From Nitrosopumilus sp. (GTDB lineage: Archaea > Thermoproteota > Nitrososphaeria > Nitrososphaerales > Nitrosopumilaceae), in the NCBI GenBank assembly GCA_963662625.1, contig OY759726.1:1794699-1858698 (forward strand): a stretch of 64,000 nt of DNA, in the 5' to 3' direction. Shown one piece after another: positions 13,256 to 19,267 of this stretch (the first letter of the stretch is position 1; every line of letters starts with the position of its first letter). The notes under the pieces are model-generated. The model saw nothing but the letters and a program-made list of their open reading frames with translations, ran no database searches and was not told where the DNA came from. Made by a program: the position numbers and the translations under genes.

Positions 13256-13283
13256 TTAGGCCATGCGCGTACCAGAACCCAGT

Positions 13284-13679
13284 ATGCTATTCGGGAAGAA
13301 GTTCGAACGGCAGGTCTCCCTGCAGAGGGACGTCCTAGACAGCATACTGTCATACTGCAAGATGAAGCACCCTAACGAGGGGATCCTGATCCTGAAGGGC
13401 AAGTCCAAGAAGGGCGACATCAGGGTGGACGGCCTGGTGATCCCCCCGTTCAACTACACGGGCCCCACGTTTGCCGGCTTCCCGCACTCGTTCCTGCCGT
13501 TTGACATGAGCTACGTCGGCAGCGTCCACTCCCACCCGAGCGGCTCTGCGGACCCCTCGATCACCGACCTGCACAACTTCTTCGGGCTGGTGTCGGTCAT
13601 AGTCAAGGCCCCGTACGAGGATGAGGACGTCTTTGCGTGGGACAGCGGGGGCAAGCCCATCAGGATCGACATAGTCTGA
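13284..13679 (+). CDS. JAB/MPN (JAMM) metalloprotease
   Basis: PNE...HSHPSGSADPSITD JAMM motif. Confidence 0.92.
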   Translation: MLFGKKFERQVSLQRDVLDSILSYCKMKHPNEGILILKGKSKKGDIRVDGLVIPPFNYTGPTFAGFPHSFLPFDMSYVGSVHSHPSGSADPSITDLHNFFGLVSVIVKAPYEDEDVFAWDSGGKPIRIDIV

Positions 13680-13919
13680 CGGCCCCGTCGTGCGTCCTTG
13701 GGGCGCCAAAGTGGAACAGCGTGGCCGCGACGCGCTGGCGGACGTGCCCTTGGCTGGGTACTCGCACCCCCCGACGGCCGCTCCTACGAAGCGTTCCTCC
13801 GGGCGCTCGTGCTCCAAACCGTGGGCATCGAGTGCTTCCCGCACGTCGTCCGTGGCCACGTCAGGCCATAGTTTCCCAGCAGCTTCCGGGCCGTCCTGGA
13901 AGCGGTCGTCGTTTGCCAT
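13680..13919 (-). pseudogene. Unknown ORF starting 2 nt after hammerhead cleavage site; apparently 3' truncated
   Basis: MANDDRFQDGPEAAGKLWPDVATDDVREALDAHGLEHERPEERFVGAAVGGCEYPAK...; frame runs on antisense into the JAB gene to a stop at 13350. Confidence 0.4.
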
Positions 13920-13967
13920 GCGACGCCGCTCGCGGCGTTTCGGCCACCGGGGCCTCATCAGGCAGGC
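13915..13967 (-). ncRNA. Type I hammerhead ribozyme (copy B)
   Basis: Minus strand: gccugc CUGAUGA ggcc-ccggu-ggcc GAAAC gccg-cgag-cggc GUC^ gcauggc; full catalytic core and stems I-III. Confidence 0.93.
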
Positions 13968-14029
13968 TGTCTGGGCGTCTTTCAAAAATTAAATACTCGG
14001 GGGTCCAACATCAGGTGGTGGGGGCTCAG
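13915..14029. repeat. 115-bp direct repeat (partner 15493-15607)
   Basis: Ungapped alignment at offset 1578, 11 mismatches by manual count; similarity resumes at 14089-14130 vs 15706-15749. Confidence 0.95.
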
Positions 14030-14108
14030 CTGGACTTTAGTCCACCTACTCTTCATCTCCAGATGAAGGGATTAGCAGTGCCAAGTTTTCATCATCGCCC
14101 TCACCATC
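14014..14108 (-). ncRNA. Box C/D-type RNA (unit B)
   Basis: Terminal stem, C AUGAUGA (14095-14089), D' CUAA (14075-14072) or CUGG (14062-14059), C' AUGAAGA (14056-14050), 20-nt guide, D CUGA (14029-14026). Confidence 0.75.
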
Positions 14109-14175
14109 CAAGCCAGTCCCATGGGACGGCCATCCCAAATCGAACACTAAAATAACTCCGGGGCCTCCTGAAGGT

Positions 14176-14245
14176 GGCGAGGGGTCAGATCTGACAGTCA
14201 TCATCACAATGATGATCAGAAGCCGTTCTCATCATCCCCCTCGCC
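14176..14245 (-). ncRNA. Compact box C/D-type RNA with two 9-nt guides (unit C)
   Basis: GGCGAGGGG g AUGAUGA gaacggcuu CUGA ucaucauugug AUGAUGA cugucagau CUGA CCCCUCGCC: four perfect boxes and a perfect 9-bp terminal stem. Confidence 0.85.
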
Positions 14246-14643
14246 CGGTTCACCCGGCACTTGCCGGGAAATGCCGCCAACCGGCGTGACTGCCGGACCA
14301 ATTCCGGCGTGAAAACGTGAAAGGAGACGTCTTGCGTGAGACAAGACACATGGAAGAAGGCACGTAGGATGTCTCGTGTGGCATAAGACGCGGCGCCATG
14401 GTGACACTTTGGCATGTTAGATGGGGGTTTACTAGGGTCCGATTTTGTGTTTGGTGTTTTGTTCCTGTTTTGGTTGGAACGCCCACCATAACCGCGAAGG
14501 ATACTAGGGAGTTCGGGTTTTGTCGGAGCCCGCAGACGTCCTCCCCCGCAGGGTATATGGATCGCGCCGTCCCGGGGTTGCCAACGGGGCCACTGGCTGC
14601 CGGCGCGGCCGCGCCCGCGGCGCTCCTTGAACGACATGGACCG

Positions 14644-15270
14644 TCAGTCGAACAGACTGTAGAGCTGGCTGTCTGTAAGACGTGGGGCTTCGCGGGTCTC
14701 GGAGCACATGTTTGACACGTACCTGCCGTGTTCCGGAAGGTAGATGCCCTTCCCCGGAACGTATCTCCCGATGCCCTGCAGTATGCGGGCGACATCCCCT
14801 TGAGAGTGGCTCTCGGCCACTGAAGTTGCCATGGATCCCCTGCCGGGGGTTTCGCCCATCCAGGGCTCCTCAGCATGGCTTCGTTTGGTAAAAAAGGGGG
14901 CGGCTACCGCCTGCCGCCCATGCCGTCCCTGAGCCTTTGCCAGTGGGCCTTTTAGGTCCCACGACCTTTTTGGCGCAGAACTCGAGCCGCCGGAGGACCC
15001 CGCGGGGGAGGCACTCTTCCAGGTCAGACCTGGACTCCCCCGGAGCAGCTGCTCCAGAACCGCCTTGCACTTGGCCGGCCCCATGGCTTGGAATTGCTCC
15101 CTGTACCAATCGGAACCGTGGAAGTCCGGCGGGTTGCAGAACTGGCACTCCTCCCCGTACTCGTCCCCGCGGGGATTGACGTGGTCGTGCGCGTCCGCTT
15201 GATCCTTTTCGATCAGTTTGGCGGCCAGCAGGTAGTGCTCGACCACCCGAGCCGATGGGAGTTCCCCCAT
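14644..15270 (-). CDS. Hypothetical protein, possibly frameshifted continuation of 15213-15497
   Basis: 208-aa ORF with HxH...CxxC; no recognisable family. Confidence 0.4.
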   Translation of the reverse strand: MGELPSARVVEHYLLAAKLIEKDQADAHDHVNPRGDEYGEECQFCNPPDFHGSDWYREQFQAMGPAKCKAVLEQLLRGSPGLTWKSASPAGSSGGSSSAPKRSWDLKGPLAKAQGRHGRQAVAAPFFTKRSHAEEPWMGETPGRGSMATSVAESHSQGDVARILQGIGRYVPGKGIYLPEHGRYVSNMCSETREAPRLTDSQLYSLFD

Positions 15271-15497
15271 CCGGTGCCGATTGGATTCCCGGAGCCTACG
15301 TCCGTCAGTACGTCGCCGTCACTTATGGCGACAACATCGTTCTTGCAATAAAATTTGCGGGTTCGGCCCTCTGGGCCGGCTTGGGCGCGTACGGCGTCGT
15401 CGAGGCCTAGCCTCTCCTGTACGTGCTTGCAGACGCTTTTGGTTAAGAACGTCCTACCTCCTATGGAGATTTGCTTCATGACTGTTTGTTCTGCCAT
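15213..15497 (-). CDS. Hypothetical protein starting 2 nt after hammerhead cleavage site
   Basis: MAEQTVMKQISIGGRTFLTKSVCKHVQERLG...; overlaps the next ORF in another frame. Confidence 0.45.
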   Translation of the reverse strand: MAEQTVMKQISIGGRTFLTKSVCKHVQERLGLDDAVRAQAGPEGRTRKFYCKNDVVAISDGDVLTDVGSGNPIGTGWGNSHRLGWSSTTCWPPN

Positions 15498-15545
15498 GCG
15501 ACGCCGCTCGCGGCGTTTCGACCATTCAGGTCTCATCAGGCAGGC
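15493..15545 (-). ncRNA. Type I hammerhead ribozyme (copy A)
   Basis: Minus strand: gccugc CUGAUGA gacc-ugaau-gguc GAAAC gccg-cgag-cggc GUC^ gcauggc; stem II covaries with copy B. Confidence 0.93.
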
Positions 15546-15591
15546 TGCCTGGCCGTCGTTCAAAAATTAAATACTCGGGGATCCAACATCC

Positions 15592-15725
15592 GGTGGTGGG
15601 GGCTCAGTTGTCACGGCTTGAAGATGTCTCATCATTTGCGCCATGTCAGACTTTCACTGGAGTACAGCGTCGGCACTGGCATCATCATCATCGCCCTCAC
15701 TGGCATCATCATCGCCCTCACCATC
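15592..15725 (-). ncRNA. Box C/D-type RNA (unit A)
   Basis: Same terminal stem as unit B; C AUGAUGA (duplicated by a ~21-24-nt tandem duplication), D' CUGA (15649-15646), C' AUGAUGA (15635-15629), 21-nt guide, D CUGA (15607-15604). Confidence 0.8.
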
Positions 15726-15795
15726 CAAGCCGGATCAGATGGGAACGGCGCGGTCGACAAAACTTTATAAGGTTTTTGACGGTAGTTGCAGTGGA

Positions 15796-16125
15796 TTGTT
15801 CAGCTACAAGACTTATTTGATCTTCCTTTTCGTGTCACTGGCGGTCAGCATCGGCCTGCAGATGGTCCTGCCGTTCCCGTACGGCCTCGGGGTCGCGCTG
15901 GCGCTGTTCATCGCGTTCCCGCTGCTGCTCAGGAGAAAGTACATGAACCGCATGAGGGGCGGATACGGAGGCTCCGGCTCCGGCTCGTCCGGGGGCGGCG
16001 GGTTCTTCGGGCTCGGCTCGTCCGGCGGCAGCTCGGTCAGGTACGTGTGCCTCGTGTGCAACAACAAGCACAAGGGGGGCGCCTGCCCTCGCTGCGGTTC
16101 CAAGATGCAAAGGGCGGACTTTTAG
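15796..16125 (+). CDS. Membrane protein with Gly-rich linker and C-terminal zinc ribbon
   Basis: Two TM helices, CLVC...CPRCG; TTG start ~25 nt after TTTATAA. Confidence 0.8.
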   Translation: MFSYKTYLIFLFVSLAVSIGLQMVLPFPYGLGVALALFIAFPLLLRRKYMNRMRGGYGGSGSGSSGGGGFFGLGSSGGSSVRYVCLVCNNKHKGGACPRCGSKMQRADF

Positions 16126-16137
16126 GGGGGCGCCTGC

Positions 16138-16449
16138 ATGTCGCTGGACGAGCTGCGCAAGAAGGTGATCTTCCACAACTCGGTCGACGTCTGGATCGCG
16201 TCGTGCGCCGAAAGGGGCGGCGACTGGACGGACACGGACGGCTACAGGGGGTTCATCGCGTTCCTGCTCGAGAACGGCCTGAACATGAAGGCGTTTTCCC
16301 TGTGCGCGCACGAGGCGGGCGACGACGAGGCCGAAAGGACGAGGTTCGCGGAGTCGCTGGCAGGCTCGGGGGACGACCCGAATTCCTCGATCTACACCAT
16401 CAAGCTCAGCGACCAGGCGCTGGAGACGATCCGCCGGTTCGGCCGGTGA
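16138..16449 (+). CDS. Conserved hypothetical protein
   Basis: Host-like ORF in operon with the previous gene. Confidence 0.75.
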   Translation: MSLDELRKKVIFHNSVDVWIASCAERGGDWTDTDGYRGFIAFLLENGLNMKAFSLCAHEAGDDEAERTRFAESLAGSGDDPNSSIYTIKLSDQALETIRRFGR

Positions 16450-16451
16450 TC

Positions 16452-17819
16452 TCACCCCCTCAGTTTCGGGTTGACGATCGCGTCGAGCGCGTTCCCGATG
16501 AAGACGAACGCCAGCCCCGTGACGGCAATCATCATCCCGGGGGGCGTGATCCACCACCACAGGCCCCTCGCGGCGGCGCCGTACACGTTTGCGTCGTGCA
16601 GGATCTGCCCCCACGTGGGGAACGACGGGTCCCCCAGCCCGAGGAAGCTCAGCCCCGCCTCCGTGGTGATCGCGGCCGGGACCGAGATCGCTATGCTTGC
16701 AAACGCGTACGGGAGCAGCTGCGGCAGTATGTGCTTCACGATTATCCTGGAGTCCCTCTGCCCCATCATGGTTGCGGCCTCCACGTACCCGCGCGTCTTG
16801 ATCTGGAGCGCCATGCTCCTTGACACCTTGGCTATCCCGACCCAGCCGAACATCATCAGGAACCCGATCATCAGGAATATGCTGTTGCTTATGGTGACCG
16901 ACAGTATTATGAGGAACGGCAGCGCGGGGAGCGCGTAGATCACGTCGTTGAAGCGCATCATGGCCTCGTCCGTCTTCCTTCCGCGGTATCCCGCGTATAT
17001 CCCGTACAGCAGGCCCATCATCACGGACGCGATCGCGACCGCCAGCCCTATGAACAGGGCAAGCGGCGTCCCCCAGAGCAGCCCCAGGGCCAGGTCCCTC
17101 CGCAGCTCGTCGGTGCCCATCACCCCGAAGGCCTTGCCCCCCACGATGACCCTGGAGTCGGTTATCTCGGCCTCGCCCCCCGCCCCGTACAGGTTCACCA
17201 GGAACACGTACCTGCCCTTCAGGGGCTCGTGGGCGCCCTCCTTGGAGAACACTACGTCCTCTGCCGGCATGCCGCGCGGGTCGAATGCAAACCCGGCGCC
17301 CTGCATGGCGGCGTTCTTCCTGACGGTCTCGTCGGTGGAGAATACCCTCTCGCCGTGGACGGCGGGCGACTCGGAGTACGGCAGCGGCGCCGAGAGCAGC
17401 AGGATCTCCCGGGAGTCGGGCCGCACGACCGACAGCTGCAGCAGCGGCGAGCCCGAGTACCGCGCGGTGATCTCGTAGATGAAGTCGTTTGGAAAGTCGT
17501 CGTAGTCGAAGATGGTCGCGAACTGGTGCGACGACAGCGTGACGCCGCCACGCCGGTCGGACAGGACCTCTGGGGAGTCGAGGATCTTGTGCTCCGGGAT
17601 CTTCTCCCCCAGGAACGCGTTCACCCACGCCGGGACCGCGGCCTTGGGGTACCCGAGCCAGCTGCTCGGGTCGTTCCATTCCTTGAGCGTCTCGGCCGGG
17701 ATCACGGCCACCGCGAGGATCGACGTGGCGGCCAGGCCGGCCAGGATCGCCACCCCCGCCATCCCGATCCTGCTCCTCGCGAACTCCGCCCGGATCTCCT
17801 GCGGGGTGGCGCTGCTCAA
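16452..17819 (-). CDS. Peptide/nickel ABC transporter permease (DppC/OppC-like)
   Basis: GTDELRRD, EAA loop (YVEAATMMG), LSFLGLG..PTWG. Confidence 0.93.
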   Translation of the reverse strand: MSSATPQEIRAEFARSRIGMAGVAILAGLAATSILAVAVIPAETLKEWNDPSSWLGYPKAAVPAWVNAFLGEKIPEHKILDSPEVLSDRRGGVTLSSHQFATIFDYDDFPNDFIYEITARYSGSPLLQLSVVRPDSREILLLSAPLPYSESPAVHGERVFSTDETVRKNAAMQGAGFAFDPRGMPAEDVVFSKEGAHEPLKGRYVFLVNLYGAGGEAEITDSRVIVGGKAFGVMGTDELRRDLALGLLWGTPLALFIGLAVAIASVMMGLLYGIYAGYRGRKTDEAMMRFNDVIYALPALPFLIILSVTISNSIFLMIGFLMMFGWVGIAKVSRSMALQIKTRGYVEAATMMGQRDSRIIVKHILPQLLPYAFASIAISVPAAITTEAGLSFLGLGDPSFPTWGQILHDANVYGAAARGLWWWITPPGMMIAVTGLAFVFIGNALDAIVNPKLRG

Positions 17820-18871
17820 CTCCCGGCCCTCACCCGCGGGTCAAAGTACCCGTAAAGCAGGTCCGCCACGAATATGCTCGCCAGGAAGAACACGGTCAGG
17901 ACGTAGGTCGCGCCGATGATCACCGGCAGGTCCATCACGGTGATCGCCTCGAAGTACAGCCTGCCCATTCCCGGCCAGTCGAACACGGCCTCCGTGATTA
18001 TGGCGCCCCCCAGCGAGCCCGACAGGCTCAGCGCGAGGATCGTCACGATGGGCGGCGCGGCGTTCTTCAGCGCGTGCCTGTAGATTATCCTCCTCCGGCC
18101 CACGCCTATCGCCCTCTTGGCAAATATGAAGTCCTCCTGCATGATGCCCACCATGAAGTTCCTCACCAGGTACGCCCACGCCCCGAACCCGATCAGCACT
18201 ATCGTGATCAGCGGCAGCGCCATGTGGTAGAGCAGCACGACGGCGTACGACGGATCCGACGGCGGGACCGTGGGGGTCGCCCTGGCAGGGAACACCTGGT
18301 AGGCAAACGCGAAGACGAATATCATGATCATGCCGATCCACCACACCGGGAAGCTGGAGCTGATCACCGCGAAGCTCGACGTGATCCTGTCCAGCACGGA
18401 ACCCACCTTGCTGCCCGAAAGCGCGCCCAGGAATATCCCGATCACGGAGATTATGACCGTGGCCGTGGTGAACAGCAGGACCGTCCTCGGGAGTTTTTCC
18501 ATGATTATCTCCCGGATGTCCGACGATCCCAGATCGCTCGTGAGGAACGTGGCGTGGCCAAAGTCCAGCGTCAGGATCTTGAACATTGTCAGCCCCAGCC
18601 TCTGCGGCGAGTGCCACGGCTCGTCCAGCCCCATCACCGCGATCCTGTGCTCGATCTGCTCCCGGACGTACCCCTCGAACTCATCCACCGACGAGAAGCC
18701 CTCGGCGATGGCGGGGTTGTCCGTGATCTCGGCCCTCACCTGGAACGCCACGCCCTGCTTGAGGATCGCGTCCATGTTGGAGCCGACTAGCGATATGGTG
18801 AGCAGCAGCGTGATGATCAAGACGCCGAACATCGTGGCCAGGCGCGTCGCGACGTACCTTCCCAGACCCAT
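17816..18871 (-). CDS. Peptide/nickel ABC transporter permease (DppB/OppB-like)
   Basis: HALKNA and GAIITEAVFDWPGMG motifs. Confidence 0.93.
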   Translation of the reverse strand: MGLGRYVATRLATMFGVLIITLLLTISLVGSNMDAILKQGVAFQVRAEITDNPAIAEGFSSVDEFEGYVREQIEHRIAVMGLDEPWHSPQRLGLTMFKILTLDFGHATFLTSDLGSSDIREIIMEKLPRTVLLFTTATVIISVIGIFLGALSGSKVGSVLDRITSSFAVISSSFPVWWIGMIMIFVFAFAYQVFPARATPTVPPSDPSYAVVLLYHMALPLITIVLIGFGAWAYLVRNFMVGIMQEDFIFAKRAIGVGRRRIIYRHALKNAAPPIVTILALSLSGSLGGAIITEAVFDWPGMGRLYFEAITVMDLPVIIGATYVLTVFFLASIFVADLLYGYFDPRVRAGS

Positions 18872-18967
18872 CAGGGTTTCTCACGCGCGCCGCGTTATAA
18901 TAGGTGCGGCGCGCCCGCGCCAGGCCCGCCGGAAAGTCCTAAATTACGGCTGGCCGCAGGATCCGCG

Positions 18968-19267
18968 TTGCCCCGCAGCACGTTTGATCCGGACCGACTG
19001 GAGCTGACAAAGCCCGAGATCGTCGGGTTTTGCGACAGGGTGCTGGCCAGGTGGGGCAAGGAGCCGGCAAAGAACGCGCACGGCATCATGGCGATGAACG
19101 CGGTCAGGGCCGGGGTCATGTGGACCGACGACGAGTCCCTCAAGGCCATCTGGGGCGAGATAGTCAAGTGGTCCTTTGAGATAATGTACGAAAACGCGCT
19201 GGCGCAGGCGAAGGACGGCGACGTCGACTGGGCGGGCGTCATGAGGGGGCTGAAGAGCAAAAAATGA
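18968..19267 (+). CDS. Conserved hypothetical protein
   Basis: Host-like codon usage; TAAATTA box upstream. Confidence 0.7.
   Translation: MPRSTFDPDRLELTKPEIVGFCDRVLARWGKEPAKNAHGIMAMNAVRAGVMWTDDESLKAIWGEIVKWSFEIMYENALAQAKDGDVDWAGVMRGLKSKK

Follow-up and report, generated by a model that had tools for sequence, protein, structure and literature searches.

This report concerns a stretch of 64,000 nucleotides (hereafter the window) from the genome of a Nitrosopumilus species (Archaea; Nitrosopumilaceae; assembly GCA_963662625.1, contig OY759726.1, positions 1,794,699 to 1,858,698 of the forward strand), and a series of type I hammerhead ribozymes that appear to be encoded on its minus strand. 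Read along that strand, the locus consists of a small RNA (sRNA) of the C/D box kind, a first hammerhead (HHR1-B), an open reading frame (ORF1-B), a second hammerhead (HHR2-B), a further open reading frame (ORF2-B), a segment of 197 nucleotides, two more sRNAs and a third hammerhead (HHR1-A). HHR1-B occupies positions 15493-15545(-) with a predicted cut between 15500 and 15499, and HHR1-A positions 13915-13967(-) with a predicted cut between 13922 and 13921. An earlier note on this DNA had pointed out these two motifs; they read as it gave them, and its cut positions are correct by position rulers. The note missed the third copy in the window, HHR2-B at 14828-14879(-) (predicted cut between 14834 and 14833), the C/D box sRNAs upstream of the ribozymes, and the start codon carried in the 3' strand of stem I, which is the AUG at 15497-15495 in HHR1-B, 13919-13917 in HHR1-A and 14832-14830 in HHR2-B.

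HHR1-A and HHR1-B share one layout, in which a 6-nucleotide 5' strand of stem I is followed by CUGAUGA, a 4-bp stem II with a 5-nucleotide loop, GAAA, a 6-bp stem III (the A15.1-U16.1 pair counted) with a 4-nucleotide loop, and the triplet GUC, after which comes the 3' strand of stem I, paired with the 5' strand except for one bulged U. Fast cleavage at physiological Mg2+ depends on a tertiary contact of loop II with stem I in this class; loop II is here of a common 5-nucleotide form that occurs in viral type I hammerheads too. For HHR1-B, the best-kept copy in the window, the hammerhead is also the minimum-free-energy fold (-20.1 kcal/mol). Pairwise alignment of HHR1-A and HHR1-B bears out the earlier observation that their six differences are confined to the second pair of stem II (G-C in HHR1-A, A-U in HHR1-B, changed on both sides) and four letters of loop II. 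The earlier note had read this pattern as a sign of a fold under selection. That core and stems are identical in these two copies is by itself weak evidence for that, because both sit in one direct repeat of about 120 nucleotides, which contains the ribozyme at its end and about 70 nucleotides upstream, where five further differences are found; more distant copies carry the stronger evidence.

The source genome (1.86 Mb, one contig) has a second hammerhead locus near 149 kb, here called L002. A search of this genome brought up a third HHR1 copy, HHR1-C, at C1:149634-149755(-), the stem III of which has another sequence and length with pairing kept. The roughly 1 kb following HHR1-B is 93% identical to its L002 counterpart, and the alignment of the two revealed the HHR2 pair, namely HHR2-B, with the core CUGAGGA and the cleavage triplet AUC, and HHR2-C at L002:827-877(-), with the core CUGACGA, N7 thus being G in the one and C in the other. 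Stem I is a perfect helix of 6 bp in both, one stem II pair is C-G in one copy and G-C in the other, and stem III differs in sequence and is still paired. The two copies differ more from each other than their flanks do, and the differences are confined to N7, the compensated stem II pair, loop II and stem III, no other core position being touched. Both L002 hammerheads have the hammerhead fold as their minimum-energy fold. All five copies of the genome possess CUGANGA (CUGAUGA in HHR1-A, HHR1-B and HHR1-C), the G10.1-C11.1 pair, GAAA, the A15.1-U16.1 pair and C17 as cleavage nucleotide, and their cleavage triplets are of the N-U-H form (H not G), HHR2-B having AUC and the other four GUC. A descriptor of the core and the three stems finds exactly five type I sites and no type II or III site in the 1.86 Mb, compared with 0-1 type I sites in each of five Markov-simulated genomes, and the loose pattern CTGATGA..GAAAC..GTC matches the window twice against 0.08 expected, a count of two being reached by 1 of 100 shuffles. 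The five copies are paralogues, not five independent events.

Do the motifs also occur in other genomes? A search of 40 relatives with the DNA of the 121-nucleotide repeat returned only the genome's own three copies, all other matches having E>0.05. A covariance model built from the five copies alone (R1), which scores HHR1-B at 78.5 bits, a value that is high by construction, was searched in 150 genomes of the family. In G002, which belongs to the same genus, it found four sites, all on one strand of contig C31 (43.5, 38.5, 34 and 21.8 bits), and in G045, a member of a second genus, two (39.3 and 35.7 bits). The curated Rfam model Hammerhead_1 (RF00163) gives the G002 copies 35.4 (G002_b), 33.8 (G002_a) and 28.2 bits (G002_c); one relative thus passes the Rfam threshold of 34 bits independently of our own model. 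A second model (R2) added three sites (35.6-39 bits) within 1.2 kb on one strand in G095, a member of a third genus, and, in 150 genomes of the order, one site each in six genomes that belong to four other families (23-34 bits). When 185,579 species genomes were scanned with a strict pattern, the G002 contig alone was returned. The family set analysed below comprises 15 hammerheads, five each in the source genome and G002, two in G045 and three in G095; two doubtful or degenerate sites, in G082 (24.7 bits) and on G002:C24 (23.2 bits), are excluded from all counts. Weak covariance-model matches in G077, G110, G086, G140, G068, G104, G323 and L068 were dropped, as inspection showed either GAAA or the stems to be missing. 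The pieces of G002 and of G001, both listed under the same genus as the source genome, have about 39-46% G+C, compared with 63% in the source genome.

An alignment of 12 sequences from the source genome, G002 and G045 was used to evaluate covariation. In it 91.8% of the cells are paired and 7 of the 15 pairs have changed on both sides, figures that are biased towards stems II and III and the outer three pairs of stem I, since these make up the model to which the sequences were fitted. In 500 shuffles not one of the four measures was reached, and controls with slid positions pair to 21-45%. The three inner pairs of stem I, which lie outside the model, hold in the nine rows that are not HHR1, and in the three HHR1 rows the inner part pairs in a register shifted by one base. 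The G10.1-C11.1 pair is found in 12 of 12 aligned homologues, the row of G002_e depending on the placement of an extra U, and the A15.1-U16.1 pair likewise in 12 of 12. One copy in G002 has clearly lost G12.

At the gathering threshold the whole window matches no Rfam family, and several properties of the window copies speak against their being functional hammerheads: run permissively, Hammerhead_1 gives HHR1-B just 20 bits (E=0.15) and matches neither HHR1-A nor HHR2-B up to E=10; HHR2-B has a C.A mismatch at pair 15.2-16.2, beside the cleavage site; its hammerhead fold (-19.5 kcal/mol) lies 2.5 kcal/mol above the minimum; and that of HHR1-A (-20.9) is 3 kcal/mol worse than an alternative at -23.9 kcal/mol. 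The earlier note had named insignificant covariance-model scores as something that would refute its call. Such scores are what the Rfam model yields for the window, and it is only the lineage-specific model and the homologues that rescue the call. The low scores stem mainly from the longer, G+C-rich stem III, and the 34 bits of RF00163 represent a curated detection cut-off, not a biochemical criterion. With the canonical core, the covariation of three helices in 12 homologues from three genomes, and one relative above the Rfam threshold, the type I assignment holds, and the comparison supports the view that the window motifs are genuine self-cleaving ribozymes, members of a small lineage-specific group within a single archaeal family.

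A further feature of these copies is the position of a start codon. In 14 of the 15 family hammerheads an AUG lies 1-2 nucleotides past the cleavage site, in the 3' strand of stem I, and the reading frames that it opens extend over 26, 39, 39, 56, 62, 62, 81, 93, 94, 124, 189, 198, 227 and more than 141 codons. These frames represent about ten unrelated contexts in three genera; one of them, in G045, encodes a staphylococcal-nuclease-like membrane protein. For comparison, viral contigs that share the pattern of core and stem II were collected (115 listed loci, with 177 distinct type I sites by descriptor). Among the matches listed, an ATG stands at that place in 17 of the 177 viral sites and is followed by an ORF of at least 26 codons in 8. 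In an earlier, biased viral sample 9 of 146 sites were such cases, and all nine had a motif resembling a Shine-Dalgarno (SD) sequence with an in-frame AUG further downstream, which suggests that the real start lies there. The usual viral start lies further downstream, in the examples inspected 20-40 nucleotides after the cut and behind an SD-like motif. Outside this family but within the order, the start codon follows 11-25 nucleotides after the cut, in some cases with an SD-like motif. Because the layouts in viruses and in other families differ, the AUG in stem I is to be regarded as a trait of this family's copies and not of hammerheads generally.

How does such an arrangement fit the way in which this organism starts translation? 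In a sample of 496 genes of the source genome, chosen because their first ATG lies close to the upstream stop codon, the AT content goes up from about 0.4 to 0.65 in the stretch 35-24 nucleotides upstream of the ATG; most TATA-like hexamers begin between -32 and -25 (these two bins contain 101 of the 194 counted), and only 38 of the 496 genes have an SD-like motif. This indicates that the ordinary genes are mostly leaderless, their transcripts beginning with the start codon or right beside it. Since ordinary genes look leaderless, the ribozymes can be inferred to yield leaderless mRNAs as well. The HHR1 copies in the window are themselves preceded by a TATA-like box, ATTTAA at 15567-15572(-) starting 27 nucleotides before the first base of HHR1-B and followed by a run of five T, and ATTTAA at 13989-13994(-) starting 27 nucleotides before HHR1-A, and a similar box is located 26-27 nucleotides before the first hammerhead of the G002 array. 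Given this spacing, the 5' end of stem I stands where ordinary genes have their ATG, and a promoter at ATTTAA would start transcription at about that end. The HHR2 and G095 sites have no such box and follow a T run behind the preceding ORF, and would therefore be reached by read-through.

Upstream of the HHR1 copies lie the sRNAs. The clearest one, at 14182-14239(-), matches Rfam snoPyro_CD at 35.1 bits (E=4.7e-5), short of the gathering score of 45, with the C, D', C' and D boxes aligned. A second, C/D-box-like sRNA at 14024-14099(-) ends 56 nucleotides before HHR1-A; its C box, D box and terminal stem were identified by eye, and it has a weak match to Rfam sR39 (19.6 bits, E=0.052). A third at 15600-15696(-), also recognised by eye, ends 54 nucleotides before HHR1-B. 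Its C-box region is partly duplicated upstream, Rfam matches to it are weak and partial (16.8 bits at 15672-15716), and a TATA-like TTATAAAG is located further upstream. The guide regions differ between the sRNA copies of the window and the flanks are conserved. By eye a C/D-like sRNA precedes the HHR1 copy of L002 too, and in G002 a C/D sRNA stands 35-40 nucleotides upstream of four of the five hammerheads, in a modular array of T run, a second structured RNA termed motif X, C/D sRNA, hammerhead and small ORF. The source genome and G002 resemble each other in the D box and its 3' flank. The remaining 8 of the 15 family hammerheads (both HHR2, G002_e, the two of G045 and the three of G095) have no upstream sRNA. 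Judged from these sequences, the link between C/D sRNA and hammerhead is real in one genus and is not general.

Motif X is a conserved, RNA-like element of about 84 nucleotides. Its four helices covary, and its 5' tail forms a pseudoknot with a hairpin loop. The window contains no copy. Four copies occur in the source genome at C1:145070-148725(-), for instance at L002:509-592(-) and L035:1892-1975(-), another four at locus L066 of G002 and several at L067 of G045, and altogether 11 of 151 family genomes contain it, in same-strand arrays within hammerhead islands and with up to 9 copies per strand. In 32 of 35 distinct copies a run of at least five T directly precedes it. In its alignment 92.6% of the cells are paired and 15 of 22 pairs have changed on both sides, values that none of 500 shuffles attains, and in one genus the pseudoknot grows from four to five compensated pairs. 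The motif stands before C/D sRNAs or before ORFs, and a nuclease-like gene is preceded by motif X in two genomes and by a hammerhead in a third. The position of motif X would suit a processing or termination-linked element. Membership of the HDV-like, twister, pistol or hatchet ribozymes was considered, and motif X matched no Rfam family at the cut-offs used (E=0.5 for L066:1-3000 and E=0.01 for four further loci). It was also considered whether it might be a recombination site like the attC of integrons, which is less likely in view of the covarying pseudoknot, as this points to a folded single strand.

Turning to the reading frames, ORF1-B at 14904-15497(-) is a paralogue of the intact ORF of 198 amino acids at L002:917-1513(-). 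ORF1 has no family in Pfam or PHROG, and in 200 genomes of the family it shows just weak N-terminal similarity to longer ORFs. ORF2-B (62 amino acids, 14644-14832(-)) starts 1 nucleotide after the HHR2 cleavage site, and no protein family was found for it. It differs from its paralogue by 6 nonsynonymous and 2 synonymous codons. Between the ORF1 stop codon and HHR2-B lies a run of six T at 14890-14895(-), which resembles an archaeal terminator and may act as one. The following segment of 197 nucleotides (14419-14615(-)) is 97% identical to L002:1959-2156, the neighbouring parts of the repeat being 82-93% identical, and contains no recognised ORF or RNA family. At the other end, homology of the HHR1-A unit to the other copies ends at about 13912, just past the ribozyme, and a JAB-domain gene at 13263-13679(+) (Prok-JAB, E=3.4e-11) converges on this truncated unit. 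The ORF opened by the AUG of HHR1-A would run antisense through the JAB gene and is probably not real beyond its first part. Taken together, the window locus looks like a partly decayed, partial duplicate of the better-kept locus near 149 kb. G+C content at both is below that of the genome (0.59 in the window, 0.53-0.61 at L002). Beside L002, on the minus strand of C1:138000-157000 (positions 13515-18996 of that segment), are genes for a BsuBI/PstI-type restriction endonuclease, an Eco57I-type methylase and a HerA-like ATPase; beyond these follow paralogous ORFs of no assigned function, which have an N-terminal segment in common with ORF1, and two proteins with a membrane anchor, one of which contains a staphylococcal nuclease domain. 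These surroundings suggest a variable or mobile island.

What could be the purpose of a ribozyme that cuts so close to a start codon? As part of the 3' strand of stem I, the AUG is base-paired, and so hidden, until the RNA is cut. Cleavage after GUC or AUC would yield a downstream RNA that begins with G-C-AUG or C-AUG and carries a 5'-OH, and the 6-bp stem I could fall apart and free the AUG. A longer transcript would in this way be converted into a leaderless mRNA in an organism that initiates at 5'-terminal AUGs. The longer transcript might be a promoter-proximal leader, read-through from the upstream gene with the hammerhead before an internal cistron, or a co-transcript with a C/D box sRNA, and where an sRNA lies upstream the cut would detach it as well. 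We lean, by a little, towards this account, in which transcripts are shortened by self-cleavage to leaderless mRNAs and, in one genus, the upstream C/D box sRNA is detached as well. The account has us infer that cleavage takes place in vivo, that the transcripts have the boundaries proposed, that a leaderless RNA with a 5'-OH is translated, and that the ORFs are expressed. A bolder version, which we put forward as a tentative possibility, would be a 'ribozyme-diced operon', in which hammerheads with the start codon in stem I cut polycistronic or sRNA-mRNA co-transcripts into monocistronic 5'-OH mRNAs beginning at AUG, with motif X at the boundaries between cistrons and, in one genus, C/D sRNAs released between motif X and the hammerhead.

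A number of observations weigh against trimming to leaderless mRNAs. In Escherichia coli leaderless mRNAs with a 5'-OH are poorly translated. The 15 family copies are kin, so that 14 of 15 is not a count of independent cases and the shared AUG may be partly inherited; the one exception, G045_a, has GUG and a frame of only 11 codons, and in the other families of the order the start codon lies outside this position, as described above. Stem I has only 6 pairs, and the outer ones might be missing if the TATA position sets the start of transcription. ORF1-B is frameshifted relative to its intact paralogue and broken into three frames. One of its three indels is a difference in the length of a G run and could be an assembly error; a check in contigs from three DNA sequencing runs neither confirmed nor refuted the frameshifts, short contigs breaking at the repeats and the indel-bearing ones resembling the paralogous locus. 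Among 5.8 billion proteins the sole match to ORF1 was the window's own fragment (longer and shorter lengths were outside the search). Finally, codon differences between the paralogues are mostly nonsynonymous, 6 to 2 and 6 to 0, and coding is not proven.

The most serious rival accepts the hammerheads as real and assigns them a processing role as in phage or prophage arrays, where they would separate the small, rapidly evolving ORFs of a defence or mobile island. The start codon in stem I would then be inherited with a spreading cassette and would not serve leaderless translation. We consider this unlikely, with a real chance of being right nonetheless. Prokaryotic hammerheads are described as often lying close together and flanking small non-conserved ORFs (PMC6155905); at least three hammerheads occur on 26 of 101 viral locus-strands, among the matches listed, and some viral contigs have an identical stem II and loop II. 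The lower G+C content, the restriction-modification genes and HerA-like ATPase near the second locus and the orphan ORFs would fit such an island as well. However, a merely inherited AUG does not readily account for its being kept in 14 of 15 copies before about ten unrelated ORFs in three genera, viral ORFs usually start further downstream with the archaeal-like layout in only the 8 of 177 listed matches, and the leaderless signature of the host gives the position of the AUG a plain meaning. Alternatively, the main job of the cut could be maturation of the C/D box sRNAs, in that cleavage 35-60 nucleotides behind the D box would allow the tail to be trimmed to the protein-protected k-turn. The sRNAs 54-56 nucleotides before the HHR1 copies, those seen by eye at the second locus and before four of five G002 hammerheads, and the similarity of D box and 3' flank in two genomes would be expected under such a scheme; yet more than half of the family hammerheads have no sRNA before them, and the TATA-like box and T run between sRNA and HHR1 indicate that the two may be separate transcripts, which makes this explanation improbable.

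Still more improbable is a circular RNA of the retrozyme kind. Hammerhead cleavage leaves 5'-OH and 2',3'-cyclic phosphate ends, which are substrates of the archaeal ligase RtcB, and circles containing an ORF, C/D sRNAs and a rebuilt hammerhead could result. Hammerhead retrozymes make circular RNAs (PMC5680766), the three same-strand hammerheads of the window would release fragments of 666 and 912 nucleotides, HHR1 and HHR2 share the 3' strand CAUGGC of stem I and could thus form hybrid stems, and the repeat unit ends exactly after HHR1-A. On the other side, no reverse transcriptase was found among the ORFs examined, the second locus has no downstream HHR1 copy, and circularisation would deprive a leaderless AUG of the free 5' end on which it depends. 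We give scarcely any credence to the last alternative, namely that the motifs are inactive relics or chance look-alikes that persist because the repeat is young. The insignificant Rfam scores of the window copies could be so explained, a shared core proves little when HHR1-A and HHR1-B are 90% identical over about 120 nucleotides, decay is visible in the window (the frameshifted ORF1-B, the truncated unit A and the mismatch in HHR2-B), and there is the G002 copy without G12. But the helices covary across genera, independent homologues pass or approach the Rfam threshold, five descriptor sites stand against none or one in simulated genomes, and the changes between HHR2-B and HHR2-C avoid every core position apart from N7.

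The ribozyme class itself, and its arrays flanking small non-conserved ORFs in bacteria and phages, are already known. With RF00163 the copies described here have in common the catalytic core, the three-helix junction and the open stem I, together with a loop II of the same length and similar sequence; they deviate in a short stem I that carries the start codon and in a longer, G+C-rich stem III. The type I arrays of phages and prophages (Perreault 2011, PMC3088659; de la Pena 2017, PMC6155905) resemble them in that several same-strand copies are described within 1-2 kb between small non-conserved ORFs, and differ in the rarity of a start codon at +2/+3 and in that the host here is an archaeon with a leaderless gene signature. 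Archaeal hammerheads are reported as 'at least three' (PMC3088659). Closest in setting is the HHphage hammerhead of the haloarchaeal viruses HF1/HF2, which is archaeal and located just upstream of a start codon, and for which a transcript 5' end was mapped within 3 nucleotides of the cleavage site (Perreault 2011, PMC3088659); it differs in lying 13 nucleotides before the start codon, in having core insertions, and in being a single site in a virus of halophiles and not an array. Retrozymes (PMC5680766) likewise have hammerhead-bearing direct repeats that bracket a unit of about 0.7-1.6 kb; they are eukaryotic and non-coding and spread by reverse transcription, in contrast to the units here, which hold ORFs and C/D sRNAs. 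Engineered hammerheads used to produce leaderless mRNAs in vitro (e.g. PMC11698992) cut just before the AUG and leave no leader, and are laboratory constructs. In a literature search neither hammerheads of this archaeal group (Thaumarchaeota, relatives of Nitrosopumilus) nor a natural use of hammerheads to make leaderless mRNAs was found, the supplementary species lists lying outside the search. With the same scope, no paper was found that mentions a hammerhead together with Cenarchaeum symbiosum, the species that the earlier note had given as one reported archaeal case. Nor did we find an earlier description of what these comparisons point to, namely a start codon placed systematically inside stem I, its match to a leaderless host, the link with C/D sRNAs and the occurrence in this family.

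Hammerheads are widespread, and to our knowledge their cellular roles outside viroids, satellites and retrozymes are mostly unknown. The fixed and interpretable position of the ribozyme in an archaeon that looks leaderless suggests a concrete role, namely making leaderless mRNAs and unmasking the AUG. Moreover, at these loci hammerheads are associated with C/D box sRNAs and with a structured RNA that is new and occurs in many copies, and the neighbourhoods of hammerheads have previously led to new ribozyme classes (PMC6155905). If true, the 'ribozyme-diced operon' would be nature's equivalent of expression cassettes flanked by ribozymes and would provide a defined cellular role for archaeal hammerheads.

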